A stretch of 64,000 nt of DNA from an uncultured Mycoplasmatota bacterium. GTDB taxonomy: Bacteria; Bacillota_I; Bacilli_A; RF39; UBA660. Position numbers and translations under genes: made by a program. Location: positions 1-64,000 of the forward strand of contig CAMMQC010000001.1 in the NCBI GenBank assembly GCA_946498975.1, given 5' to 3'. Of the stretch, positions 285-48,731 are shown one piece after another (position 1 is the stretch's first letter; each line of letters begins with the position of its first letter). The notes below the pieces were generated by a model. That model did not search any database, had not been told where the DNA came from, and saw nothing but the letters and a program-made list of their open reading frames with translations.

Positions 285-1896
285 GGTTCTTGCATAAAAG
301 TTGTGGGAATCTAAATAAATTATAGACAAAATAAAAACAACTTCCTATAATGGTTTTAATAGAATAAAAAAGGAAGTTGTTACTATGATTATATCAGAAA
401 AATTAATTAAATGTGTAAAAAGTATTAAAAATTTAGCAAAAAAAGTTATTTTACTATACAATTTTAATAAACAAGCCCCAAAATCTATACTAGAAAGCAA
501 AATAAATGAAGTAAATGCCATTGAAACAGATACGGATAATACATCAGGAAAATATCTTAGTATACCTTCATTATTAGAAGGATTTACTAATACTAATACA
601 ACTAGTGAAAAGATTGATAAAAATAGAAGTCTATATCGATTTAATGGGGTTTTAACTATTAATGATAGTGATTATATATGTCCTAAGTGTGGTCATAAAA
701 TGCATATAAATAACTCTCATCAAATAACCCTTAAACATTTATGTTTTGGAGGAAACTTTACAAGGGTATGTTTTGATCATACTCAATTTTATTGTGAAAA
801 TTGTCATAATACTAATATGCAAAATATAAGTTTTAAAGCTGATAATCACCGTATAACAACTGAACTATATAACTATGTAAGAGATTTATTAGCCACAGGA
901 CATTATACTAATAAAGAAGTGGCAGAAATAACAGGTCTAAACAGAAATATTGTGAAAGATATAGATAAAAAGAGATTAGAAGAAAAATATACTATTAATG
1001 GCAAGCTTATAAAACCAGAAAGACAGGCTATTTATTTGGGTATAGATGAGTTTAAATTACATAATGGTTATAAATATGCAACTCATATAATTGACTTGGA
1101 AACTGGTCATATATTGTGGATACAAGAAGGCAAGAAGAAGCAAGTCGTTTATGATTTTATTAATCATGTAGGTGGTGAATGGATGAGTAAAGTTAAAGCA
1201 GTGGCTTGTGATATGAATTCTGATTTTGAAGAGGCCTTTAGAGAAAAGTGTCCTAACATCACTATAGTTTTTGATTATTTTCATATAATTAAAAACTATA
1301 ATGAAAAAGTAATAAGTGCAATAAGGAAAGATGAACAAAATAGATTAAAAAATGAAGGAAAAACTGAGGAAGCTAAAACTTTAAAAAGAAGTAAATATAT
1401 TTTAACTTCATCACTATCTACTTTAATCAAAAAAGATAAAGAAGCAGAGAATGGTAAAGTAATTGATAAAGGTAGTGATCTTTTTAAAAAAGCACCAGTA
1501 AAAAGAACTGGTAGTAAGGTTGACAAATATAATAAAATATTAGAAGAAAATGAATTGTTATTTACAGCAGAATTAATTAAAGAGAAAATTCAACATGCCT
1601 ATACTTTAACTAATGAAAATGAAATGAAACTAGAAATAGAAGAGATTATAGATATGTGCGAAACTAATGGCAATAAACATCTTCTATGGTTTACTAAACT
1701 ATTAAAAAGTCATATGTATGGCATAACATCTCATGCTAAATACAATATATCAACTGGTAAGATAGAAGGAATTAATAACAAAATAAAAACTTTAAGAAGA
1801 CAAGCTTATGGTTATCCTGATGATGAATACTTCTTCTTAAAGCTATTTGATATATCTAGAACTAAATAGTTATCCCACAACTTTTATGCAAGAACC
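285..1896 (+). mobile_element. ISL3-family insertion sequence, apparently complete, with 24/25-bp terminal inverted repeats
   Basis: Left end GGTTCTTGCATAAAAGTTGTGGGAA at 285-309. Reverse complement of 1872-1896 is GGTTCTTGCATAAAAGTTGTGGGAT. Flanking 8-bp direct repeats TATTTTAT at 277-284 and 1897-1904. Encloses a single transposase ORF. Confidence 0.8.
385..1869 (+). CDS. ISL3-family transposase
   Basis: N-terminal zinc-ribbon-like CPKCGH...CENCHN. ISL3-like blocks LGIDEFKLHNGYKYAT, ACDMNSDF, VFDYFHIIKN and C-terminal GKIEGINNKIKTLRRQAYGY. Confidence 0.75.
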   Translation: MIISEKLIKCVKSIKNLAKKVILLYNFNKQAPKSILESKINEVNAIETDTDNTSGKYLSIPSLLEGFTNTNTTSEKIDKNRSLYRFNGVLTINDSDYICPKCGHKMHINNSHQITLKHLCFGGNFTRVCFDHTQFYCENCHNTNMQNISFKADNHRITTELYNYVRDLLATGHYTNKEVAEITGLNRNIVKDIDKKRLEEKYTINGKLIKPERQAIYLGIDEFKLHNGYKYATHIIDLETGHILWIQEGKKKQVVYDFINHVGGEWMSKVKAVACDMNSDFEEAFREKCPNITIVFDYFHIIKNYNEKVISAIRKDEQNRLKNEGKTEEAKTLKRSKYILTSSLSTLIKKDKEAENGKVIDKGSDLFKKAPVKRTGSKVDKYNKILEENELLFTAELIKEKIQHAYTLTNENEMKLEIEEIIDMCETNGNKHLLWFTKLLKSHMYGITSHAKYNISTGKIEGINNKIKTLRRQAYGYPDDEYFFLKLFDISRTK

Positions 1897-2239: not shown

Positions 2240-2268
2240 AAACGAGACTTAATTAGTCTCGTTTAGCA
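2240..2268. terminator. Hairpin terminator shared by convergent genes: AAACGAGACT-taatt-AGTCTCGTTT
   Basis: Perfect 10-bp stem with 5-nt loop, overlapping the stop codons of the interrupted plus-strand gene and of truB. Confidence 0.5.
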
Positions 2269-3670
2269 TTTTAAAACATTTTAATTTATCATCAATATTC
2301 TGATATATTGCTAGCACTTTATCATCTTTAATAAATAACACTTTGTCTTTAATATTATAATTATTATTAATAACTGCCCCATTAATTACTTTCATATAGT
2401 CTTTATCATCTATTTCTTTTGTTTCTATGTCTAAAGCATTACTAATAGTAATTAAAGAACCATTTATACTTACATCATCTAGATTAACTGCATCACTTAA
2501 TTTAAACTTACCTTGTCTAGTTCTTAGTAAACTACTCATAGTACAAGGTATATCTAAATAATCTCCCATATCTTTAATTAAACTTCTAATATAAGTACCT
2601 TTAGATACAACACATCTAAACTTAAAAGAATCTTCTTTATAATCTAATAATTCTAATTCTTTAATCATAACTTCTCTTTTAGGTAATTCTATATCTTTAT
2701 TACTTCTAGCATACTCATATAGTTTCTTACCATCTACTTTAATTGCAGAGTACTTTGGTGCTTCTTGTAGATATTCCCTTGGAAAATTATTGAATAAAGC
2801 TTCTAGCATATCTTTAGATACTCGTTTTTTACTTGTCTTTACTACTTTACCTTCTAAATCTAAAGTATCAGTTTCAACTCCTACTTTTACTTCTGCAATA
2901 TATTCTTTAAGAGTACAAGTAAGTAATTCATTTATTTTAGTTGCCTTATTAATAGTAATAACAAGTAATCCTTCTGCCATTGGATCAAGTGTTCCATTAT
3001 GTCCTACTTTCTTAGTATCAAAAACTCTTCCTATTTCATTAACAACATCTCTTGAAGTTAATCCTTTAGGTTTATTTACTAGTAAAACTCCACTCTTATT
3101 ATAAAGTTCATTATATTCTTCTAATGTTAGGTTATTATCTATTATGATTTTAGCGGTGCTTTTACCAACATATCTATAATGCCAAGGTTCATAGTTATAA
3201 CCAGTTATTTCTTCTTTACCTTTAGGATATCTAAGTATTAAACCATAATTAGGTAAAATACTTATAATTATTTTATAAATCTCTTCATTAGTAAATAGTT
3301 CATCATTTTCATATATTAACTTATTATTAATAATTAAGCCAATATCAAAACATAACCCTGTATGATGTTCACTTGCTTTAATAGGAGCGACATATTTCTT
3401 CGTATAATCTTCTCCATATTTGTTAATATAATCATTAATTATCATTTCTTGATCTTTTATAGTTCTATAACCACCTATTATATCAATAAAAATATTATCT
3501 TTTTCTAAATCCTTCTTTAAACTAAGAAAAGCCTTTAATGTTCTTTTTTCAAGTAAATACTCTTCACCTATTATATTAGTTATTTTTCTAAACTCTATAT
3601 TAGAAAAATTATTTTTATCATACAAATTATCTTTATTAACTAAGATTTTATAATTCATCTTATCCCTCAT
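2249..3670 (-). CDS. truB: Fusion protein: N-terminal M15/VanY-type D-Ala-D-Ala peptidase domain joined to tRNA pseudouridine(55) synthase TruB
   Basis: N-terminal ~190 aa carry IIGGYRT, SEHHTGLCFDIG and EPWHYRYVG (LAS/M15 metallopeptidase motifs). They run without a stop into GVLLVNKPKGLTSRDVV...GHNGTLDPMAEGLL (TruB catalytic core). Sits directly downstream of rbfA, as usual for truB. Confidence 0.7.
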   Translation of the reverse strand: MRDKMNYKILVNKDNLYDKNNFSNIEFRKITNIIGEEYLLEKRTLKAFLSLKKDLEKDNIFIDIIGGYRTIKDQEMIINDYINKYGEDYTKKYVAPIKASEHHTGLCFDIGLIINNKLIYENDELFTNEEIYKIIISILPNYGLILRYPKGKEEITGYNYEPWHYRYVGKSTAKIIIDNNLTLEEYNELYNKSGVLLVNKPKGLTSRDVVNEIGRVFDTKKVGHNGTLDPMAEGLLVITINKATKINELLTCTLKEYIAEVKVGVETDTLDLEGKVVKTSKKRVSKDMLEALFNNFPREYLQEAPKYSAIKVDGKKLYEYARSNKDIELPKREVMIKELELLDYKEDSFKFRCVVSKGTYIRSLIKDMGDYLDIPCTMSSLLRTRQGKFKLSDAVNLDDVSINGSLITISNALDIETKEIDDKDYMKVINGAVINNNYNIKDKVLFIKDDKVLAIYQNIDDKLKCFKMLNETN

Positions 3671-3998
3671 TTATTTCATCTATAATCTTATCAATTTTCT
3701 CTCCATAGAAAACAGATTCATCATATATAAACTTAAGCTCAGGAATATTTCTTATCTCTATTCTTTTAGCAAGCTCTCCTCTAATAAAACCACTAGCATT
3801 ATTTAAAGCTTGTAAAGTCTCCTCCTTTTTTTCTTGCTCTAAGACAGTTACATATACTTTACAATAACTTAAATCATTAGAAGTACCACAATCTGTAACA
3901 GTTACAAACTTAAATCTTTCATCTTTTACTTCTAACATTAATATCTTACTTACTTCTTCCATAATCATATGATTAATTCTTTCTATCTTTATATTCAT
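3660..3998 (-). CDS. rbfA: Ribosome-binding factor A
   Basis: 112 aa, good match to RbfA family, at the conserved position upstream of truB. Confidence 0.8.
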   Translation of the reverse strand: MNIKIERINHMIMEEVSKILMLEVKDERFKFVTVTDCGTSNDLSYCKVYVTVLEQEKKEETLQALNNASGFIRGELAKRIEIRNIPELKFIYDESVFYGEKIDKIIDEINEG

Positions 3999-4061
3999 TA
4001 AAATCAGTCCTTTCTTCTAATTAAGTATAGCATATTTTTTAAATTTTAGATATAATATGCT

Positions 4062-6287
4062 TTGTTAGGGGGAATTTATATGTCAAAAAACAGAGAATTA
4101 GTAAATGAATTAAAAAGTGAAAGTAGTAATAGACGTAATTTCTTTAAAGAAAAAATAAAAGAAGAGTTAAAGAAAAACAATATGGAAATCAATGATACTA
4201 TTATTAATGATATCTTTAATAATGCTTTAGATACATATACAGATGATGTTAAGATACCTTTCTTATTTCATATAAAAGCAGTTATAAAGAATAAAGATAA
4301 AAAGACGGAAACCGGATACTTAAATAAACTTCAATATGAAGTTATTAAACTATATTTAACTAAAGAAAATAATAAATATTTATCTAAAATAGATATCGCT
4401 ACTAAGCTCTCTATCAAAATTGATGAGGTTATAGATATTATAGAGTCTCTTAATAATGATAATAATTTAGATAAAATATTTCCTAATTATAAAGAAATAC
4501 TTAAAGATAGAAATGATTACTTTAAAAAGAAAGCAGTTGTTATATCTGAAAAGCAGATTATTTTATTAGTAGAATACTGTGGTGATCTAAAGAAAAAGAT
4601 GGATTTTAAAGCCCTTGCAAAGAAATATGATAAAACTACTATTGATATTAAAAATGAATTAAAAAATATCTTTAAACTATTAAAGACAGAAAATAATTTA
4701 ACTATTTTATTAGATAGATATCCTAATATTAAGAATGCTCTTATAAGAAAAAGTAAAGTATTTAATATTTCTTTAGATATTAAAGAAGATATAGCAGTTA
4801 AACATATTGTAACTAGTGATTTTAAAAGAAAAGCCCATCTTAATAAAGATGATATTACAATGCTAAAATTATTAGATAGTTATAATAAAAATGAAATAAC
4901 CTGTGAAAAAATAAAAGAAGCTAGTTTTGATAGTGTCGCTAGTTTTGTTGATAAGAGAAATAGATTCTTTAGTAAACTTAGGACTAATAAAAACTTTTTT
5001 GATACTGTTAATGAGTTATATCCTAATTTAGGTATTGAAACTTTAATAGATATGCCTAGATTAACATATTATGAATTTAAAGCTTTAGCACTTGTAGATG
5101 AATATTCTTATAAAAAGGTAATTGAAGATGAGAAATTAATTAAAGAAGATGTATTTAAAAATATTAAGTCTTTTAATAGTATATTAAAGAATGCTATTAA
5201 TAAGTTAAATGAAAGTGGATATCTATTAGAAAAAGTATCTTTAGTTCTTACTAATTTAAATGATTTAGAATTAGTTGATAATAAAAAGAAAAAAGATGAT
5301 TTAAGCCTTTCTTTAATAGAGTTAAAAATATTAGAAACTTTAAATGACAATCCAAACTTAACAAATAGAGAGCTTGCTGCTATAGCAGGTTTTAAAAGTG
5401 AAGCTAGTTTTGTTAATAGAAAATATGATTTATTAGCGAGAATTAACAATAATAAAATATTGGAATTAAAGATTAAGAGAAAATATCCTCATATTGTATT
5501 AATAAAGGAAAAGAGAAAAACTAAACTGAGTGATAAAAATATAGAATTACTTACTCTATTAGAAAAAAAGCTTTCTGATAAGGAAATGGCAGATACTTTA
5601 GAATTAGCGAATGAAAAGAGTTATTATACTGTTAAGAGAATATTATTTAAACAATTAGAAGAAAATGAATCTCTTAAAAGAGATGCTTTAAGAAAGTTCC
5701 CTGACCTAATCTTAGATGATTATATTAATAATCTTGCTATTAGATTTACAGAAAATGAAATAGTCTTTTTACAAGAGTTTTGTTTAATAGAAGATAATAA
5801 TCTTATTTATCAAAGTGAAGAAGAAATCCTAAAGAAGCTTAACTTACAACCTAAGATGATAGAATTTGTTAAAACTACTTCTACTATTAAAGTTGTTAAA
5901 AATATGATTGTAGGTACTAATTTAGATGAATTATTATGGTCTAATTTTACTGATGAGTTTATTACTAGGGATAGTTTTAATGGTGATAATAGTATTTCTG
6001 TTAATAATTTAGAGTTTAAAGAGCAAATGAGTGATGATATATTAGAAGGTATCAAAAGACTTGAAGAGTCTATCTTTGGAGACTTTGTAGAGCAATGTAC
6101 TTTAAAAGAAAAATTAGTTCTTGCTCTTAGATTAGGTTATTTTGATAAAAGATTTTTTACTAGTAGTGAAGTTGCTATGATTACAAAAATGGAAGAGATT
6201 AAAGTTATATCTCTAACTAAAAAGTGTTTAAAGATGTCTAGAAATAATTATATAGATGAAAAACAGAAGCAGAAGATTTTAATTTAA
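4062..6287 (+). CDS. Large sigma-70-like/multi-HTH protein of unknown function. Region 2-like N-terminus, about six HTH modules, region 4-like C-terminus.
   Basis: N-terminal INDIFNNALDTYTDDVKIPFLFHIKAVIKNKDKK resembles sigma region 2. C-terminal LKEKLVLALRLGYFDKRFFTSSEVAMITKMEEIKVISLTKKCLKM resembles region 4. Several internal HTH-like segments, for example LTNRELAAIAGFKSEASFVNRKYDLLARI. Lies antisense between infB and rbfA. Confidence 0.35.
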   Translation: MLGGIYMSKNRELVNELKSESSNRRNFFKEKIKEELKKNNMEINDTIINDIFNNALDTYTDDVKIPFLFHIKAVIKNKDKKTETGYLNKLQYEVIKLYLTKENNKYLSKIDIATKLSIKIDEVIDIIESLNNDNNLDKIFPNYKEILKDRNDYFKKKAVVISEKQIILLVEYCGDLKKKMDFKALAKKYDKTTIDIKNELKNIFKLLKTENNLTILLDRYPNIKNALIRKSKVFNISLDIKEDIAVKHIVTSDFKRKAHLNKDDITMLKLLDSYNKNEITCEKIKEASFDSVASFVDKRNRFFSKLRTNKNFFDTVNELYPNLGIETLIDMPRLTYYEFKALALVDEYSYKKVIEDEKLIKEDVFKNIKSFNSILKNAINKLNESGYLLEKVSLVLTNLNDLELVDNKKKKDDLSLSLIELKILETLNDNPNLTNRELAAIAGFKSEASFVNRKYDLLARINNNKILELKIKRKYPHIVLIKEKRKTKLSDKNIELLTLLEKKLSDKEMADTLELANEKSYYTVKRILFKQLEENESLKRDALRKFPDLILDDYINNLAIRFTENEIVFLQEFCLIEDNNLIYQSEEEILKKLNLQPKMIEFVKTTSTIKVVKNMIVGTNLDELLWSNFTDEFITRDSFNGDNSISVNNLEFKEQMSDDILEGIKRLEESIFGDFVEQCTLKEKLVLALRLGYFDKRFFTSSEVAMITKMEEIKVISLTKKCLKMSRNNYIDEKQKQKILI

Positions 6288-6320
6288 GTGAAACTAAAAA
6301 GTAGGGAGCTACCCTACTTT

Positions 6321-8444
6321 TTATCTTTCTACTTCTACAAGTTCATATACTTCAATGATATCTCCTTCTTTATAATCTTGGAAATTATCTAAAGTAAGTC
6401 CACAATCATGATCTTTAGACATTTCTTTAACCCCGTCTTTTTCATGTTGAAGTGACTTTATAGAGCCATTATAAATTACTATACTATCTCTTACTACTCT
6501 AGCTTTATCATTATTTTTAATAGTACCAGAAGTTACATGGCAACCTGCTATCATACCAACTTTAGAAAATTTAAATAGTTGACGTATCTCAGCAGTACCA
6601 GTAACTTTTTCTTCATAAATAGGCTCTAACATACCTTTCATAGCTTTTTCCATATCTTCTACTAATTTATAGATAATATCATAAATTCTAATTTCGATAC
6701 TATATTGTTTAGCCATATCTAATACTTTATTATTTCCTCTAACATTAAAACCTATTATTAGAGCATTAGAAGCGGATGCTAGGACAATATCACTTTCTGT
6801 AATACCACCAACTGCTCCTCTAATAACATTTATTTTAACTCCTTCTACTTCTATTTTTTCTAGTGAAGATTTTACTGCTTCTAAACTACCATTAGTATCT
6901 GTTTTTAAGACTACATTTATCTCTTTAAGGCCTTCATTTATCTTACCGAATAACTCTTCTAGACTCATACCAGTTCTATTAGTATCAGCATCTTTTTCTC
7001 TTAAGGCTCTATCACTTGCTATTTGTTTAGCTTGTTTTTCAGTTTCAAATGCCATGAATTTATCTCCAGCACTTGGAACACTAGATAGTCCTGTTATCTC
7101 TACTGGCATAGATGGAGGAGCAGTAGTTATGTTTCTTCCTAAATCATCTTTAAGCGTTCTAACCTTACCAAAAGCTGTTCCTACAACAATAGGATCACCT
7201 AATCTTAAAGTACCATTAGAAATAAGTAAAGTTGCAACTGCTCCTACATGTTTATCCATTTTACTTTCAAGGACAGCCCCAGTTGCATAACGATTAGGAT
7301 TAGCTTTTAATTCTTGCATTTCAGCAATTAATAGAATATTTTCTAATAATTCATCAACACCCTCACCTGTTTTAGCAGATATCTTAGTTACAATAGTATC
7401 TCCACCCCATTCTTCTGGAGTAAGTCCTGCTTCTACAAGTCCTGTCATAACTCTATCTATATTAGCTTCAGGTTTATCTATTTTATTTATGCATACAATA
7501 ATAGGAACACCTGCTGCTTTAGCATGATCAATTGCTTCTTTAGTTTGAGGCATTATACCATCATCTGCTGCTACTATAATGATAACTATATCAGTAACAC
7601 TAGCACCTCTTGCTCTCATCTCTGTAAAAGCAGCATGTCCTGGAGTATCTATAAAGGTTATCTTTTTACCATTACATTCTACTTGATAAGCACCTATTTC
7701 TTGAGTAATACCACCAGCTTCTCCACTTGCAACATTACTTTTTCTAATATAATCAAGAAGTGTTGTTTTACCATGATCAACATGTCCCATTATAGTTACA
7801 ACCGGAGGACGTTCTACTAAATCTTCTTCTCTATCTTCTATTTCATAATTTTCAAAGTTAGAAATGTCAGCTTGTTCTTCTTTTTTAACTGTTTTATTAT
7901 AATCTAGAGCGATTAATTCAACAGTATCAAAACTAACACTATTATTAACAGTAGCCATTATTCCTAATCCCATTAATTTTTTAATAATTTCCCCAGTAGA
8001 AACATCTAAAAGATTAGCTAAATCTGATACTGTCATACCTTCTTTATATAGTAAAACATTCTCATCTACTACTTGCTCATTACTTTGTAACTTCTCTTTA
8101 TGTTTATATATCTTCTTTCTTTCTTGTTTAAAGTTACTCTTATCTTTCTCTTGCTTCTTAGCTTTTTTAACCTTACTTGTTTTAACTAGATTATCATTAG
8201 TAAGATTAGATTCATATGCTATTTGTTCTGCTTTCTCATCTAAATTATAATCATTAAGCATCTCTTCATCAGGATTAGTTTCTACATAATCTTCTTCATC
8301 TTGAAAAGAATTATCTAAAAGTATTACTTCATCATCACTAAGAACTCTATCTAAATCACTTGTATCCATAGCAAGACTTTCCATATGTTTAACTATATCT
8401 TCCACACTTCTACTAATATCTTCTGCATATTCTTTTATTGTCAT
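6321..8444 (-). CDS. infB: Translation initiation factor IF-2
   Basis: [13 protein letters not shown]-domain, 707 aa, follows nusA-ylxR. Confidence 0.9.
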
Positions 8445-8453
8445 AAAATCACC

Positions 8454-8714
8454 TCACTCTAATATTTTTCTTATTTCATCATATACCTCATTACTAATAT
8501 TACATTCTAATTTTCTCTCTAAGCTTTTTTTCTTAATCGCTTCTTCTAAGACTTTTACATCTCTTTTAATATATGCACCTCTACCGTTCATTTTTCCTGT
8601 TAAATCAACTTTAACTTCTCCATCTTTACTTCTAACTATTCTAAGTAGTTCACGTTTATCTAATTTTTCTCCTGTTACTACACAACTTCTAAGAGGAATT
8701 TTTCTTGTTTTCAT
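8454..8714 (-). CDS. ylxR: YlxR/DUF448 RNA-binding protein
   Basis: 86 aa with KIPLRSCVVTGEKLDKRELLRIV, conserved between nusA and infB. Confidence 0.7.
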   Translation of the reverse strand: MKTRKIPLRSCVVTGEKLDKRELLRIVRSKDGEVKVDLTGKMNGRGAYIKRDVKVLEEAIKKKSLERKLECNISNEVYDEIRKILE

Positions 8715-8723
8715 AACTACCTC

Positions 8724-9938
8724 CTATTCTGATTTTATACTAATACCCATTTCCTTAGCTTGCTCACTAGTTTTAATATCAATTTTATATTTAGTAAGTC
8801 TAGTAGCAAGTTTAGCATTAAGACCTTTTCTACCTATAGCAAGTGAGAAATTATCACCATCTGCTATTACTAAAGCTTCCCTCTTCTTAGGATCAGTAAT
8901 TAATACTGTTAAATCTTTAGCAGGACTTAAAGCATTTTCTATAAATACTGCAGGATCACTATCGTATTTAACAATATCTACTTTCTCACCATTAAGCTCT
9001 GTAATGATATTGGCAATACGGCTACCTCTTTCTCCAATACATGCTCCAATAGGATCCACTTTAGGGTTTTCTGAATATACTGCTACTTTACTTCTAACAC
9101 CTGCTTCTCTTGCTACACTATATAGAAGCACTGTACCATCAACTAGTTCTGGTATTTCACTTTCAAATAATCTTTTAACAAAGCCAAAATGCCTTCTACT
9201 AAGTAGTACAAGTAAGCTTCTACCATTATTATCTACTTTAGTAACATAAACTTTAATCTGACTACCCATTTCAATATGTTCACCTGGTATAATATCTTTC
9301 TTAGGTAAAATACCATTAGTACGTCCTAAGTCAATAAAGTAGTTATCTGTATCTTCTAGTGCAACTGTACCAACAAGTAATTCATCTTGTTTATCTCCAA
9401 ACTCATCAGTAATACTAGAGCGTTCTGCTTCTCTAATCTTTTGAATAACAACTTGTTTAGCAGTACTTGCTGCAACTCTACCAAAGTCTTTAGGAGTAAC
9501 TTCAGTATCAATAGTATCTCCAACATTAACAGTTTTATCTAACTTTCTAGCATCACTAAGTTTAATCTCAGTACCTGGATTAAAGAAACTAATCTTTTCT
9601 TCTTCTTCATCCTTTTCCTTAGCTTTTTCTTCTTCTTTAAACTCTTTTTCACTTATTTCTGTATCAAGATTTTCATCTTCTGCATAACGTTCAAATAAAG
9701 CATCTTCATACTCTTCTTTAGTCATTTTATCATCAGGTACAACAGTAAGATAAGAATATACTTTTATATCTCCATTATTTTCATTAATTAAGACTTTTAC
9801 ATTATTATTTTTACTTTTAGCATTCTTCTTATAAGCACTAGTTAAAGCATTTCTCATCGCTTCAAAGATAATTTCTTTATCTATATGTTTTTCTTTAACT
9901 ACTAAGTCAACTGCTTTAAGAAATTCTTTTCCATTCAT
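8724..9938 (-). CDS. nusA: Transcription termination/antitermination factor NusA, with an acidic insert after the N-terminal domain
   Basis: N-terminal domain, S1 and KH regions recognisable (GRTNGILPKKDIIPGE; IGACIGERGSRIANI). Confidence 0.85.
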   Translation of the reverse strand: MNGKEFLKAVDLVVKEKHIDKEIIFEAMRNALTSAYKKNAKSKNNNVKVLINENNGDIKVYSYLTVVPDDKMTKEEYEDALFERYAEDENLDTEISEKEFKEEEKAKEKDEEEEKISFFNPGTEIKLSDARKLDKTVNVGDTIDTEVTPKDFGRVAASTAKQVVIQKIREAERSSITDEFGDKQDELLVGTVALEDTDNYFIDLGRTNGILPKKDIIPGEHIEMGSQIKVYVTKVDNNGRSLLVLLSRRHFGFVKRLFESEIPELVDGTVLLYSVAREAGVRSKVAVYSENPKVDPIGACIGERGSRIANIITELNGEKVDIVKYDSDPAVFIENALSPAKDLTVLITDPKKREALVIADGDNFSLAIGRKGLNAKLATRLTKYKIDIKTSEQAKEMGISIKSE

Positions 9939-9939
9939 T

Positions 9940-10188
9940 TTACATATCTCCTTTCTCTTTAGAATGTATATCTAATACATCTATATCATTACATAAGTTA
10001 TTATCATCCATAATAGGATTAATAATTTCAGTTGCCTCTGTTATTTTATTAACATCGATTATCTCTTCACTATCAAGTTCAATATTTAATGTTTTAACCC
10101 CTTCTTCAGTAGAATAATAAACACTACTTACAAATAGCCCTAAGTCTTTAATTTTATCATCTACTAAAGCTTTTACTTTATTTTCCAT
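9940..10188 (-). CDS. rimP: RimP-like ribosome maturation factor, only N-terminal domain length (82 aa)
   Basis: Position immediately upstream of nusA and weak N-terminal RimP similarity. C-terminal Sm-like domain absent. Confidence 0.45.
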   Translation of the reverse strand: MENKVKALVDDKIKDLGLFVSSVYYSTEEGVKTLNIELDSEEIIDVNKITEATEIINPIMDDNNLCNDIDVLDIHSKEKGDM

Positions 10189-24882: not shown

Positions 24883-25575
24883 TTACGAATACTTAACTAT
24901 ATTCTTTAACCTCCTAATCACTTTCTTTTCTATTCTTGATATATAAGACTGACTAATACCAAGTAGTTCTGCAACTTCTTTCTGGGTTAATTCATTATGT
25001 CCCATTAGTCCATATCTTAGTATGATAATATCTCTATCTCTTGGATTTAACTTCATAACTTCATCTAGCATTAATTTTTTATCTGTCTCTTCTTCTATTC
25101 CTTTAGTTACAATATCTGCATCTGTTCCTAAGATATCTTCTAGATGTAATTCATTCCCTTCTGCATCTAAACTAAGAGAGGCATCTATACTTACTTCTGT
25201 TTTAGATTTCTTAATCTTTCTTAAGTACATTAATATCTCATTATCAATACAACGTGATGCATAAGTTGCAAGCTTAATATTTTTATCTGGTTTAAAAGTA
25301 TTGATACCTTTAATAAGCCCAATTGTCCCTATACTAACTAAATCTTCTAAATCTACTTTCGTATTTTCATACTTTTTAGCAAGAAATACTACTAATCTTA
25401 GATTATGTTCAATTAAAACATCTCTTGCATGTATATCCCCATCCATAGCCATTACAAGATATGCTTCTTCATCTTCTTTTGATAATGGTTCTGGTAAGAT
25501 ATCACTACTACCTACATAAAATATTTCACATGATTTATCAAGTAAAAATGCTACTAAGTAAAGTAAACTAATCAT
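24883..25575 (-). CDS. sigE: Sporulation sigma factor pro-sigma-E
   Basis: Pro-sequence ending ...YVGSSDILPEPLSKEDE, then HARDVLIEHNLRLVVFLAKKY...GTIGLIKGINTF...ISQSYISRIEKK. Near-collinear with SigE. Confidence 0.85.
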   Translation of the reverse strand: MISLLYLVAFLLDKSCEIFYVGSSDILPEPLSKEDEEAYLVMAMDGDIHARDVLIEHNLRLVVFLAKKYENTKVDLEDLVSIGTIGLIKGINTFKPDKNIKLATYASRCIDNEILMYLRKIKKSKTEVSIDASLSLDAEGNELHLEDILGTDADIVTKGIEEETDKKLMLDEVMKLNPRDRDIIILRYGLMGHNELTQKEVAELLGISQSYISRIEKKVIRRLKNIVKYS

Positions 25576-30875: not shown

Positions 30876-33020
30876 TTAATATAATATATAGCTTTTACCA
30901 CTTGCTTCTTTAACTTGTTGTTTAGAAATCATATATTCCCTTAATAATTTAAGTAACGTTTTAATATCTATTCCCACATATTTACTAACTTCTTCCATTG
31001 CTTTTTCTTCATTATACCCAAATTCTAAATACTTTCTTAATAATCTTAAACAAGATTCTTCTATTGTTTCTTCGTTTGAATACACCATTTCTTCATATAT
31101 TGTTTTTTGAATCACTTCTTCTTCTACATTAATATTGGTATCTTTAATTCCCCTATCAAATATACTTGTTTCTTCTAAAAAATCACTTCTAAAAATTGAA
31201 TATTTTTTATTTCTGTGGCTTCTTTTTATCAATCTTATCGCATTTCTTATAATTATAGCTTTTATAGCAATTTTTATTTGCTCATCAGTTAAATAATTTT
31301 TTTCAATATTGCCACATTTTTCTATTATGTACATTATAGAATCACTTACAATATCATCTTTTATATTATCACATTTGTATTTTGCAGTTAACTTATTACT
31401 AATTTTAGTACCACTTTCTATCATATACTGTGCATATTTTTCAACAAATTTTTTACTACATTTTATATATCCTATCCATAGTTGACCCTTTATCTCTAAA
31501 CTATTCAATAAAGAACTTACATTTTTAACACTTTTAAAGCCAAATATATATTGCAATACAACTTCTAATTCTATATCATATTTTTTAGCTAATTCTTCTA
31601 ATTCAGTTTTTGAATAATACTTTGATTCAATTAATACATGTTTTACTCGATTAATTTTCTTTTGTATTAAATAATCTCTTACAATTGCTCGTGTACCTTT
31701 ATTTCGTATGCTATTATAATTAGAATGACTTATACCCAAAATACTTGCAAACTCTACTTCACTTAATTTATCTTTATATATCCTATATAAACTTAAAAAT
31801 TCTTTGTAGTCTATTACTTGCCCTATTTTAACTTTTTTTAAGACTTCTTCCTTGATTTTTTCTTTGCCTTTTAAATTTATGCTTTTTTGCTCATTTTTTA
31901 ATATCCTTGCTCGTGTACCTTTTTTTCGCATACTTTCATAATTGGAATAATTTATGTTTAGGATGCTTGCAAATTCTACTTCACTTAATTTATCTTCATA
32001 TGACTTATATAAACTTAAAAATTCTTTATAATTTGTTAGATGTCCAGGTTTTACTTTTTTTAAGACCTCTTCCTTGATTTTTTCCTTATCTTCTAATTTT
32101 ATACTTCTTTGTTCGTTTTTTAATACCCTTACATGTGTACCTCTATTTCGCATACTATTATAATTGGAATAATTTATGTTTAGGATGCTTGCAAACTCTA
32201 CTTCGCTTAATTTATCTTCATATGACTTATATAAACTTAAAAATTCTTTGTAATTTATTAGTTGACTAGGTTTTACTTTTTTTAAGACTTCTTCCTTAAT
32301 TTTTTCCTTGTCTTCTAACTCTATACTTTTTTGCTCTTTTTTTAATATCCTTGCTCGTGTACCTTTATTTCGCATATTATTATAATTAGAATAACCTATA
32401 CTTAAAATATTTGCAAACTCTACTTCACTTAATTTATCTTCGTATGGCTCATATAAACTTAAAAATTCTTTATAATTTATTAGTTGTCCAGGTTTTACTT
32501 TTTTTAATACCTCTTCCTTGATTTTTTCCTTGTCTTCTAACTTTATACTTCTTTGCTCATTTTTTAATAACCTTGCTCGTGTACCTTTTTTTCGCATACT
32601 ATTATAATTGGAATAATTTATGTTTAGGATGTTTGCAAATTCTACTTCACTTAATTTGTCTTTATATGACTTATATAAACTTAAAAATTCTTTATAATTT
32701 ATTAGTTGTCCGGGTTTTACTTTTTTTAAGACTTCTTCCTTGATTTTTTCCTTGTCTTCTAACTTTATACTTCTTTGTTCACTTTTTAATACCCTTACAT
32801 GTGTACCTCTATTTCTCATATTATTATGATTGTTATAACTTATGTTTAGAATGCTTGCAAACTCTACTTCACTTAATTTGTCTTCATATAACTTATATAA
32901 ATTTAAAAATTCTTTATAATTTATTAGTTGTCCAGGTTTTACTTTTTTTAAGACTTCTTCTTTAATTTTCTCGTTTTCTTTTAAAATGTTATCCATTATT
33001 TTCCTCTTTATTAAATTCAT
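30876..33020 (-). CDS. Sigma-70-like protein: six tandem 74-aa HTH-like repeat modules, then a region 2-like and a region 4-like C-terminal segment
   Basis: Repeats KIKEEVLKKVKPGQLINYKEFLSLYKSYEDKLSEVEFASILNINYSNYNSMRNRGTHVRVLKNEQRSIKLEDKE x6. C-terminus has DIVSDSIMYIIEKCGNIEKNY...IKAIIIRNAIRLIKRSHRNKK (r2-like) and ESCLRLLRKYLEFGYNEEKAMEEVSKYVGIDIKTLLKLLREYM (r4-like). Confidence 0.4.
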   Translation of the reverse strand: MNLIKRKIMDNILKENEKIKEEVLKKVKPGQLINYKEFLNLYKLYEDKLSEVEFASILNISYNNHNNMRNRGTHVRVLKSEQRSIKLEDKEKIKEEVLKKVKPGQLINYKEFLSLYKSYKDKLSEVEFANILNINYSNYNSMRKKGTRARLLKNEQRSIKLEDKEKIKEEVLKKVKPGQLINYKEFLSLYEPYEDKLSEVEFANILSIGYSNYNNMRNKGTRARILKKEQKSIELEDKEKIKEEVLKKVKPSQLINYKEFLSLYKSYEDKLSEVEFASILNINYSNYNSMRNRGTHVRVLKNEQRSIKLEDKEKIKEEVLKKVKPGHLTNYKEFLSLYKSYEDKLSEVEFASILNINYSNYESMRKKGTRARILKNEQKSINLKGKEKIKEEVLKKVKIGQVIDYKEFLSLYRIYKDKLSEVEFASILGISHSNYNSIRNKGTRAIVRDYLIQKKINRVKHVLIESKYYSKTELEELAKKYDIELEVVLQYIFGFKSVKNVSSLLNSLEIKGQLWIGYIKCSKKFVEKYAQYMIESGTKISNKLTAKYKCDNIKDDIVSDSIMYIIEKCGNIEKNYLTDEQIKIAIKAIIIRNAIRLIKRSHRNKKYSIFRSDFLEETSIFDRGIKDTNINVEEEVIQKTIYEEMVYSNEETIEESCLRLLRKYLEFGYNEEKAMEEVSKYVGIDIKTLLKLLREYMISKQQVKEASGKSYILY
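31700..32970. repeat. Six near-identical 222-bp tandem direct repeats inside the coding sequence
   Basis: Recurring DNA blocks, for example ...cttgctcgtgtacctttttttcgcatact... and ...gcttgcaaactctacttcacttaatttatcttcatatgacttatataaacttaaaaattctttataatt..., at roughly 222-bp period across 31.7-33.0 kb. Confidence 0.8.
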
Positions 33021-33300: not shown

Positions 33301-33849
33301 ATGTTAAGAAATAAAGATATATTAGATGAAAAAGACAAAAGATTAAGATTAGTTAGTAAAGATGTTACTTTTCCTTTAAGTAAAGACGATTTAAAGACTA
33401 TTGATTTAATAGTAGAATATCTAACTAATAGTCAAATAGAAAGGTTATCAGAAAAATATAATTTAAGACCTGGTATGGGTATGGCTGCAATTCAATTAGG
33501 AATTCCTAAAAGATATTTAGTAATTGTTCATGAAATAGATGAAGAAGAGTTTGATACTTATATTATTTGTAATCCTAAAATTATTAGTAATTCGGCTGAA
33601 AAGATTTATGTAGAAATGGGAGAAGGATGTTTATCTGTTAATCGTGAAGTTGATGGTATTGTACCAAGATATGCTAGAGTTACTGTAGAAGGATATGATA
33701 CTAAAGGTAATAAGATAAGAGTAAGAGCAAGAGAAGAACTTGCTATTGCCTTCCAACATGAAATAGATCATTTAAATGGTATTATGTTTACAGATTATAT
33801 TGATCCTAAAAACCCATTTAAAGATAGTGATAAATATAGACCAATTTAA
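33301..33849 (+). CDS. def: Peptide deformylase
   Basis: GMGMAAIQLG, EGCLSV, QHEIDHLNG motifs. Confidence 0.85.
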   Translation: MLRNKDILDEKDKRLRLVSKDVTFPLSKDDLKTIDLIVEYLTNSQIERLSEKYNLRPGMGMAAIQLGIPKRYLVIVHEIDEEEFDTYIICNPKIISNSAEKIYVEMGEGCLSVNREVDGIVPRYARVTVEGYDTKGNKIRVRAREELAIAFQHEIDHLNGIMFTDYIDPKNPFKDSDKYRPI

Positions 33850-48011: not shown

Positions 48012-48731
48012 TTAACTGAAGTCTACATCATTATACTTATTATTCTTAATAAATTCTCTAAGTATTTTAGTTAAGGCTCTCTTTTCAATTCGGGATACAT
48101 AGCTTCTAGATATATTTAATTTATCAGCAATTTGTTTTTGTGTCCATAAATCATTTCCTTCTAAACCATATCTTTTAACAATAATTTCTCTTTCTCTTTT
48201 AGTTAAAACTTTTAAGTAAGAATTAAGTAGTTTAACATTATCTTTTAAATTAATTTCTTCTATAAAATCAGGACGTGGGGCTTTTATAACATCAAGGATT
48301 GATATTTCATTACCTTCTTTATCAAAACCAACGGGTTCATTTAAAGAGATATTTTTATTATTTTTATTGTTTGCACGAAAATACATTAGTATTTCATTTT
48401 GAATACATTTAGCACAATAAGTAGTAAGACGATTTCCTTTATTAGGAACAAAGGTATCTACACCTTTAATAAGACCAATAGTACCAACACTAATAAGATC
48501 ATCTTGATCAACGTTTTTATAATCGAACTTTTTAACAATATGAGCGACTAATCTAAGATTATGTTCTATTAGTTTATTACGAGCTTCTTTATCTCCCTCC
48601 ACCATCTTTTTAATACACTCTTCTTCCTCATCTTTTGATAGTGGTTCTTTAAAGACTTGATTAGAGTAACTTGCTGTAAAAGTAAAGAAACCTCTTAGGC
48701 TATCAAATAAATTAAACAACATTTTTATCAC
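48012..48731 (-). CDS. sigK: Sporulation sigma factor pro-sigma-K, uninterrupted
   Basis: Hydrophobic pro-sequence then PLSKDEEEECIKKMVEGDKEARNKLIEHNLRLVAHIVKKF...GTIGLIKGVDTF...ISRSYVSRIEKRAL. Near-collinear with SigK. No intervening element. Confidence 0.85.
   Translation of the reverse strand: MIKMLFNLFDSLRGFFTFTASYSNQVFKEPLSKDEEEECIKKMVEGDKEARNKLIEHNLRLVAHIVKKFDYKNVDQDDLISVGTIGLIKGVDTFVPNKGNRLTTYCAKCIQNEILMYFRANNKNNKNISLNEPVGFDKEGNEISILDVIKAPRPDFIEEINLKDNVKLLNSYLKVLTKREREIIVKRYGLEGNDLWTQKQIADKLNISRSYVSRIEKRALTKILREFIKNNKYNDVDFS

Follow-up and report, generated by a model that had tools for sequence, protein, structure and literature searches.

The gene between rbfA and infB of an uncultured Mycoplasmatota bacterium encodes a protein that appears to be built entirely from sigma-70-family building blocks, and the gene shows the behaviour of a hypervariable specificity locus with a constant place in the chromosome. 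We analyzed this gene, hereafter X, in positions 1 to 64,000 of contig CAMMQC010000001.1 (assembly GCA_946498975.1; GTDB lineage RF39, UBA660); this stretch of 64,000 nucleotides (nt) is referred to below as the window. X carries a sigma region 2-like domain at one end, a sigma region 4 homologue at the other and seven helix-turn-helix (HTH) modules between them. Recombination between old allele classes has diversified the central array, and modules have been gained and lost. The likeliest reading of its function, which we regard as evenly balanced between right and wrong, is that of a sigma-derived transcription factor targeting DNA.

Modular architecture of protein X

The whole chain of X consists of nine small helical domains (M0 to M8, Table 1), and no other domain type was found. 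BLAST comparison of X with itself detects no internal repeats; these are visible solely in profile-profile comparisons (hhalign) of sub-alignments. By this measure, M3, M4, M5 and M6 are mutually homologous (96-98%, E 1e-9 to 1e-13), and M1, M2 and M7 form a second, looser group (M1 versus M2, 81%; M2 versus M7, 79%; M2 versus M5, 56%). The two terminal domains are unique among the modules. An AlphaFold2 model built with a 15-member alignment is an all-helical string of small domains with a mean predicted local distance difference test score (pLDDT) of 80.5 and a predicted template modelling score (pTM) of 0.40, so that the predicted domains are confident and their relative arrangement is not. 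Linkers of low confidence fall at residues 73-78, 236-252, 400-406 and 476-478. The protein is basic (isoelectric point 8.8).

Scanning the family with module-specific hidden Markov models (HMMs) revealed a fixed plan, M0-M1-M2-[B-type]n-M7-M8, in proteins of 719-1915 residues (aa). The number of B-type modules ranges from 4 to 17, with four in X, 5-8 in its relatives, 13 in P0101 (1479 aa) and 17 in P0108 (1915 aa), which brings the total of HTH modules between the ends to between 7 and about 20. The initial annotation had placed about six HTH-like modules between the ends of X; the modules are there, and they number seven, of about 75 aa each.

Relationship of the modules to sigma factors

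Scans of X against Pfam, NCBIfam, PHROG and PADLOC returned no family and no sigma domain, only a marginal match to HTH_24 at residues 412-435. Across 15 members of the family, Pfam HTH_24 matches 11 and Sigma70_r4 matches five, and there are also matches to MarR and HTH_10. Thus, of the two sigma profiles that had been proposed as a check, together with structure prediction, Sigma70_r2 found nothing and Sigma70_r4 a third of the members (5/15); support came from profile and fold comparisons. The full-length family profile retrieved nothing relevant from PDB sequences, and matches emerged only after the profile had been split by domain and remote members had been added. Foldseek matches of the whole model are weak, and nearly all of them are sigma factors.

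M8 is homologous to sigma region 4. A profile of M8 with 16 remote domains matches PDB structures of primary sigma factors in their region 4 (1rio_H, E 3e-4), including residues 356-409 of Thermus thermophilus SigA and Thermotoga maritima 1tty. Two ordinary sigma factors encoded in the window served as in-genome positive controls, and their sigma-4 regions are matched at E ~1e-6. Comparison with eight Pfam-verified sigma-4 regions gives hhalign values of 96-98%. The top structural match of M8 is 4g6d, a sigma-4 domain bound by a phage anti-sigma protein. X therefore ends in a region 4 HTH.

M0 is probably sigma-2-like, a weaker case than M8. Its 31-member profile aligns with eight verified sigma-2 regions over 75 columns (hhalign 79%, P 1.6e-5). 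The alignment is in register, with a matched GD motif and with 'eAidsY...F.FY..IK' of M0 opposite 'kAvdkFd...FstYA..I' of sigma-2. The controls were clean: P was 0.32 against sigma-3, 0.17 against sigma-4, 0.78 for a reversed alignment and at least 0.19 in each of twenty column shuffles. The best PDB sequence match of M0, to the sigma-2 part of SigI6, is non-significant (E 0.09). At the level of profile and fold, the region 2-like N-terminus and region 4-like C-terminus expected in the initial annotation are both supported.

The modules between the ends are related to the same folds. In comparisons with sigma-4, hhalign gives 95% for M1 (P 2e-8), 94.5% for M2 (P 8e-8), 94% for M5, 72% for M4 and 71% for M6. 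M7 is matched by sigma-3 (71%, P 4e-5). The sigma-like architecture first read from the sequence is thus essentially right, with seven modules instead of six.

Distribution and chromosomal position

X has 25 close homologues. An exhaustive search of 1.84 billion representative sequences found 191 proteins at E <= 1e-3, of which 55 reached E <= 1e-30, none of the proteins having a source annotation other than 'hypothetical protein', and no relatives were found in 2.9 million viral contigs. The nearest public sequences are metagenome-assembled genomes labelled uncultured Bacilli, Tenericutes or Candidatus Onthousia excrementipullorum, one of them circular and of 1.52 Mb.

All 21 loci that have both flanking genes carry a family member in the interval from rbfA to infB, always oriented the same way. 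Variants of this slot include two tandem copies of X (L009/L017), an insertion sequence (IS) element of the DDE_Tnp_1 type between the rbfA/X promoter region and X (L001/L002, 8357-9814) and an interrupted X (L022). Numerous other IS elements border the region. Distant members P0108 and P0140 (1186 aa), in lineages L029 and L030, also occupy the infB-rbfA slot, and the genes past rbfA differ in these lineages. X is resident in, and specific to, the lineage of Candidatus Onthousia-like gut Bacilli, which are uncultured. The infB-rbfA linkage is broken by an opposite-strand gene, as initially described. Calling that gene inserted does not hold if a recent event is meant, since X fills the slot in every related locus, distant lineages included. 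X is indeed a common, conserved member of the region in relatives, one half of the refuting observation named in the initial annotation; the other half, a known function for such a gene, was not found.

The mechanical open reading frame (ORF) of X starts at TTG 4062 and would encode 741 aa. The true start is almost certainly ATG 4080, because every homologue begins at the equivalent methionine, because a ribosome-binding site precedes it at 4067-4073 and because both this site and the methionine are conserved across 14 aligned loci. The strand and the end (6287) of the gene as first called are right; its start is not, and the product has 735 aa. The ORF is real: it has homologues and a ratio of non-synonymous to synonymous substitution rates (dN/dS) of 0.25-0.53, and a frame of 2.2 kb is highly improbable by chance in a window of ~24% GC. 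The GC content of X itself is 21-25%, below that of infB.

Allelic diversity and recombination

Proteins encoded by the flanking genes are 86-100% identical between loci, against 30-100% for X. Loci L005 and L008 share 95-100% nt identity with the window in infB, nusA and rbfA, and only 47-69% at ~4211-6310. The 3' edge of the divergence is razor-sharp and coincides with the stop codon of X and the terminator, and the 5' edge is gradual, the first 150-200 nt of X being conserved. Within the InfB clade of the window, L005, L008, L013 and L014 (InfB 98-100% identical), there are three allele classes of X that are mutually 38-48% identical, one of them of 985 aa. Another InfB clade (L001, L006, L015, L018 and L024; InfB 95-99%) contains at least four classes. 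The class found in the window is common to both clades, with X 87-90% and InfB 92-93% identical.

Synonymous divergence (dS) tells the same alleles apart by age. Between the window and L005, dS is 0.85 in X versus 0.15 in the flanks, indicating that the L005-type X is an old allele. Between the window and L014, the corresponding values are 0.04 and 0.16, indicating a recently shared allele. Exchange also involves parts of the gene: over 5561-6160, the window and L015 share 98-100% identity, against ~89% in the flanks, and the nearest relatives of X differ from module to module. M0, M7 and M8 are the most conserved modules (54-60% mean pairwise identity) and M2-M5 the least (38-45%; 38-50% for M3-M6).

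The dN/dS of X (0.25-0.53) compares with 0.05-0.12 for infB and nusA and is that of a gene under constraint with a large variable component, not of a decaying one. Relaxed constraint alone is insufficient as an explanation, because dS is also raised in X and alleles are shared across lineages. Collectively, these patterns indicate long-lived allele classes whose transfer relied on homologous recombination through flanks that are conserved, the population pattern of specificity or conflict loci.

Within infB, a 150-nt bin at 7061-7210 has ~85% identity with L005, L008 and L014, which are near-identical elsewhere, and 98% with L015, L018 and L006, which are more distant overall, indicating recombination inside this gene too.

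The divergent control region and the shared terminator

X and rbfA are transcribed divergently from an intergenic region of 81 nt, in which promoter-like elements for both genes are invariant across the 14 aligned loci, a set that takes in the distant lineages L029 and L030. The candidate extended -10 element of rbfA, with a GTATA.CA core that is unchanged in 14/14 loci, is correctly spaced upstream of the rbfA ribosome-binding site. On the other side, X and infB converge on a terminator hairpin that overlaps the infB stop codon and is common to both genes. It scored as a terminator on both strands, and transcription of infB is therefore expected to stop there. Together, X and the bidirectional terminator would uncouple rbfA-truB from infB, and rbfA would then be driven by its own conserved promoter in the divergent region. 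That rbfA-truB needs its own promoter had been argued from gene order; conservation of the candidate extended -10 in 14 loci and the terminator behind infB support it, the promoter function of the element being inferred.

A terminal sigma-4 subtype in extended sigma factors

Outside the family, the profile of X matches only M8-type domains, which occur in many other proteins. Several of these are complete sigma factors (regions 1.2, 2, 3 and 4) with a C-terminal extension of 150-700 aa. An M8-type domain terminates 120 of the 126 extended sigma factors of this kind that were scanned, all from uncultured Bacilli and Firmicutes (E ~1e-33 to 1e-38). They are primary-like and 589-1198 aa long (P0181, P0193, P0194, P0178 and P0261-P0378). 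M8 is a distinct 'terminal sigma-4' subtype belonging to the transcription-initiation apparatus of these bacteria, and it is not simply a flap-binding sigma-4, because it occurs in addition to the canonical domain.

Small proteins consisting of the extension alone are also encoded (P0170 and P0175). In P0150 (286 aa), an AbiL-like AAA_21 ATPase (PADLOC AbiLi, E 9e-37) runs into an X-type M8 (E 3.7e-21 to the X family profile); either a defence ATPase is naturally fused to this domain, or a chimeric gene was called on what is a short contig.

Possible functions of X

If X is a sigma-derived DNA-targeting transcription factor, it would bind DNA sequence-specifically through its HTH modules. A constant function would fall to the conserved ends, either docking on RNA polymerase in the manner of sigma-2 and sigma-4 or contact with a DNA or protein partner that does not vary. 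The task of the central array of sigma-4/AsnC-type HTH modules would be to recognize a long or composite target in DNA, and the specificity of this array would be under diversifying or frequency-dependent selection.

Several observations weigh against this reading. The proposed binding of DNA and of RNA polymerase is a prediction from homology. In a per-helix analysis, the variable positions lie on the surface of all helices and do not cluster in the recognition helices. Apart from the coding repeats of a 714-aa protein gene described below, the window has no tandem repeats that could be candidate targets of the array. M0 has no match in Pfam or NCBIfam scans, and Pfam Sigma70_r2 never matches any family member. 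Its alignment with sigma-2 ends before region 2.4, the domain itself stops at about residue 75, and the tryptophan pair of region 2.3 is absent; because of this early end, M0 would lack the part that recognizes and melts the -10 element, and sigma-type promoter melting by M0 is doubtful. The recognition helix of M8 opens with acidic residues (MEEIKV...) where sigma-4 has TRERIRQ, so that M8 may not be a reader of the -35 element. Finally, the extended sigma factors carry a canonical sigma-4 alongside their M8-type domain, which argues against naming X a sigma factor.

In a bolder form of the transcription-factor reading, which seems to us improbable, X would be a modular, 'programmable' sigma-like factor. 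Its ends would be tethered to RNA polymerase or to whichever partner the extended primary sigma uses, the exchangeable array of 4-17 modules would read long DNA addresses, and hypervariability would follow from an arms race with phages, IS elements and other invading DNA. If this is true, bacteria would possess an equivalent of fast-evolving zinc-finger arrays, made from sigma-factor parts.

Alternatively, X may act in conflict with phages or mobile elements, either as a silencer that reads incoming DNA with its HTH array, much as fast-evolving KRAB zinc-finger arrays do, or as a sigma-4-like decoy for phage anti-sigma proteins. Old allele classes, their sharing across lineages, raised dN/dS and variation in module number are all hallmarks of conflict loci; the genomes are rich in IS elements, one relative has the AbiL-like ATPase joined to an X-type M8, and the sigma-4 structure that M8 resembles most is one captured by a phage protein. 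Nevertheless, X has no match in PADLOC or PHROG, no effector domain and no neighbouring defence genes that we could see, its overall dN/dS is below 1, and the modules, relatable to real sigma-4 by profile-profile methods only, are too far from it for convincing mimicry. We consider a conflict role unlikely, though deserving of some weight.

A low probability also attaches to the view that X is a genuine alternative sigma factor of giant size. In that case, M0 would sit on the beta-prime clamp helices and M8 on the beta flap, with the array in place of sigma-3 and the linker, and the holoenzyme would use an extended promoter and serve its own regulon. The canonical order of a sigma-2-like head and a sigma-4 tail fits this view, as do the sigma-3- or sigma-4-like nature of all modules between them and the sigma factors that top the fold matches of the whole model. 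Against it stand the absence of region 2.4, of the melting aromatics and of a Pfam Sigma70_r2 match, and the 570 to ~1750 residues that separate the ends when the docking sites on RNA polymerase have a fixed spacing. Real sigma factors have the M8 type alongside a canonical sigma-4, and a sigma factor that defines a regulon is not expected to be 38-47% identical between near-identical genomes. X falls outside the sigma factor family, as it lacks two defining features, regions 2.3/2.4 and a compact spacing of sigma-2 and sigma-4.

A divergently encoded HTH regulator that controls neighbouring genes would follow the usual logic, and X could regulate the divergent rbfA-truB-rpsO-pnp genes or, by convergent transcription, the nusA-infB operon. 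Its strict tie to the slot across the clade and the conserved control region, with promoter elements back to back, are consistent with such a role. However, control region and flanking genes are near-invariant and X is hypervariable, and 7-20 DNA-binding modules far exceed the needs of one operator. Local regulation is accordingly quite improbable.

That X represents the cargo of a mobile element or prophage remnant, or a decaying functionless ORF, is barely credible: it breaks an operon that is widely conserved elsewhere, infB exceeds it in GC content and IS elements do enter the slot (L001/L002; the interrupted L022), but no integrase, repeats or att-like boundaries were seen, every related locus has X with the same architecture and promoter region, and the intact frames of 719-1915 aa under purifying selection are not those of a dead gene. 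A phage or mobile origin was rejected on the absence of relatives from viral contigs and the conservation of the slot.

The 714-residue tandem-repeat protein

The initial annotation had taken X for a paralogue of a 714-aa protein encoded elsewhere in the window, and this relationship did not survive comparison: BLASTP gives E 2, hhalign between the two family profiles 2.5%, and none of the M0-M8 HMMs matches. The DNA repeat that encodes the units of the 714-aa protein measures 222 bp and occurs 5.9 times at 31685-32984. The repeat unit of the protein has only a generic HTH similarity (sigma-4 56%, M6 46%), and an assignment of the C-terminal 270 aa to sigma-2 and sigma-4 was rejected for lack of detectable sigma likeness. 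The families of the two proteins have no members in common, that of the 714-aa protein comprising P0026-P0094 with 405-1109 aa. Like X, its members are unannotated and lineage-restricted, and the 714-aa protein resembles X in size (~700 aa), in ~74-aa HTH-like units and in variable repeat number. Unlike in X, the repeats are near-identical and N-terminally placed, and the tail is not detectably sigma-like. X and the 714-aa protein share the theme of HTH-like arrays and are not demonstrable paralogues.

The 714-aa gene adjoins def (33301-33849). In L032, the sigma factor P0195, with an M8-type terminal domain, also adjoins def and is preceded by two unannotated genes of ~540 aa.

Gene content of the locus

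Gene calls and Pfam matches confirm the order rbfA, plus-strand ORF, infB (Table 1). InfB is the product of the final gene of the rimP-nusA-ylxR-infB unit and is 86-99% identical to its relatives. RbfA, 80-98% identical to relatives, is encoded by the leading gene of the downstream rbfA/VanY-truB unit.

Table 1. Genes, modules of X and regulatory elements of the window.
Feature	Position	Strand	Description
VanY-truB fusion gene	2249-3670	-	473 aa; Pfam VanY E 3e-29 and TruB_N E 5e-49
rbfA (ribosome-binding factor A)	3660..3998	-	112 aa; Pfam RBFA E 5e-35
rbfA ribosome-binding site	~4008-4015	-	GAAAGGAC on the minus strand
Candidate extended -10 of rbfA	4024..4032	-	TGCTATACT (TGcTATACT) on the minus strand; plus strand AGTATAGCA
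Candidate -10 box of X	4051..4056	+	TATAAT; invariant in 14/14 loci; 24 nt 5' of ATG 4080
Ribosome-binding site of X	4067..4073	+	AGGGGGA; G-rich block kept 6-12 nt before the ATG in all loci
Multi-HTH sigma-derived gene X	4080..6287	+	735 aa; between rbfA and infB
M0	4080..4304 (residues 1-75)	+	N-terminal four-helix domain; like sigma region 2.1-2.3, without region 2.4
M1 and M2	4314..4784 (residues 79-155 and 153-235)	+	'A-type' HTH; in nearly all family members
M3-M6	4827..5723 (residues 250-327, 326-398, 405-475, 480-548)	+	Four 'B-type' HTH of ~72 aa
M7	5733..5999 (residues 552-640)	+	Conserved A-type, sigma-3-like; motifs FLQEFC and LWPNF..EFI.R
M8	6012..6284 (residues 645-735)	+	C-terminal sigma-70 region 4 homologue, 'terminal sigma-4' subtype
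Bidirectional intrinsic terminator hairpin	6295..6323	both	12-bp stem, A-tract and T-tract at its sides
infB (translation initiation factor IF-2)	6321..8444	-	707 aa; Pfam IF2_N, GTP_EFTU and IF-2 in orthologues
ylxR	8454-8714	-	Upstream of infB
nusA	8724-9938	-	Upstream of ylxR
rimP, short	9940-10188	-	Upstream of nusA
714-aa protein gene	30876-33020	-	Unannotated; six near-identical 74-aa HTH-like units and a 270-aa tail

The rimP product has 82 aa and matches the RimP N-terminal domain alone, at 21.8 bits and thus under the Pfam cut-off of 22.7; rimP appears to be truncated in this clade. In the VanY-truB product, a VanY-type D-Ala-D-Ala carboxypeptidase domain is N-terminal to TruB, a fusion kept in all relatives. 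The DNA between the two domains (~3311-3460) has ~63% nt identity even to genomes that are 93-96% identical elsewhere in the gene. An ISL3-family transposase gene lies just past truB (385-1869, plus strand). The two ordinary sigma factors of the window (24883-25575 and 48012-48731, both on the minus strand; ~235 aa each, with Sigma70_r2 and Sigma70_r4) are probably of the sporulation-type group 3. In L003, two tandem ToxN-type toxin genes (1671-2910) lie beyond pnp and adjoin an integrase gene, a small defence/toxin-antitoxin islet.

Significance and comparison with known systems

The building-block folds of X, sigma-2 and the sigma-3/4 HTH, are known. The architecture, the variable array of sigma-4-type modules, the terminal sigma-4 subtype and the hypervariability at the address of a core operon are not described in the libraries and literature searched, and literature on Onthousia, RFN20 and multi-sigma-4 architectures contained no description of the family. 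If X is the transcription factor proposed above, a region 4-type HTH would have been amplified into an array of variable length within a sigma-like frame, an undescribed use of sigma domains. Old, exchanged allele classes are normally found at surface-antigen, restriction-specificity and immunity loci, and the infB-rbfA neighbourhood is among the most conserved operon neighbourhoods of bacteria; such alleles amid these genes are unusual. X offers a single-gene entry to transcription control or genome defence in small-genome gut Bacilli known from metagenomes only, and a natural scaffold of concatenated HTH modules for working out rules of DNA recognition. An explanation is also needed for the terminal sigma-4 that primary sigma factors of related bacteria carry. 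For annotation, rbfA-truB would be treated as an independent transcription unit in this clade.

Among known proteins, sigma-70 factors of group 3 and the two-domain extracytoplasmic function (ECF) group 4 share with X a sigma-2-like N-terminus and a C-terminal sigma-4 HTH. They have sigma-3 or a short linker where the X family has 570 to ~1750 residues of tandem HTH modules, and X differs from them in lacking region 2.4 and the melting determinants and in being hypervariable among near-identical genomes. The extended primary-like sigma factors (for example P0181, annotated as 'sigma-70 family RNA polymerase sigma factor') have the same M8-type end, with the motif L.LRLGY.D.KYFS...IA.FLGI...EV. 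These retain the full core of regions 1.2, 2, 3 and 4 and have no B-type array, whereas X is without a canonical core. Regulators of the LuxR/GerE and AsnC/MarR types use an HTH as DNA-binding unit, as X is predicted to do; unlike them, X has no receiver, ligand-binding or dimerisation domain, and it has 7-20 modules per chain where they have one. Transcription activator-like (TAL) effector repeats, KRAB zinc-finger arrays and PRDM9 resemble X in combining a constant scaffold, a module array of variable number and rapid diversification. This likeness is an analogy only, and so is the suggestion that the array of X might read DNA as TAL and zinc-finger arrays do: fold and organisms are unrelated, and in the ~72-aa HTH modules of X divergence extends across the entire surface and is not confined to a handful of specificity residues.

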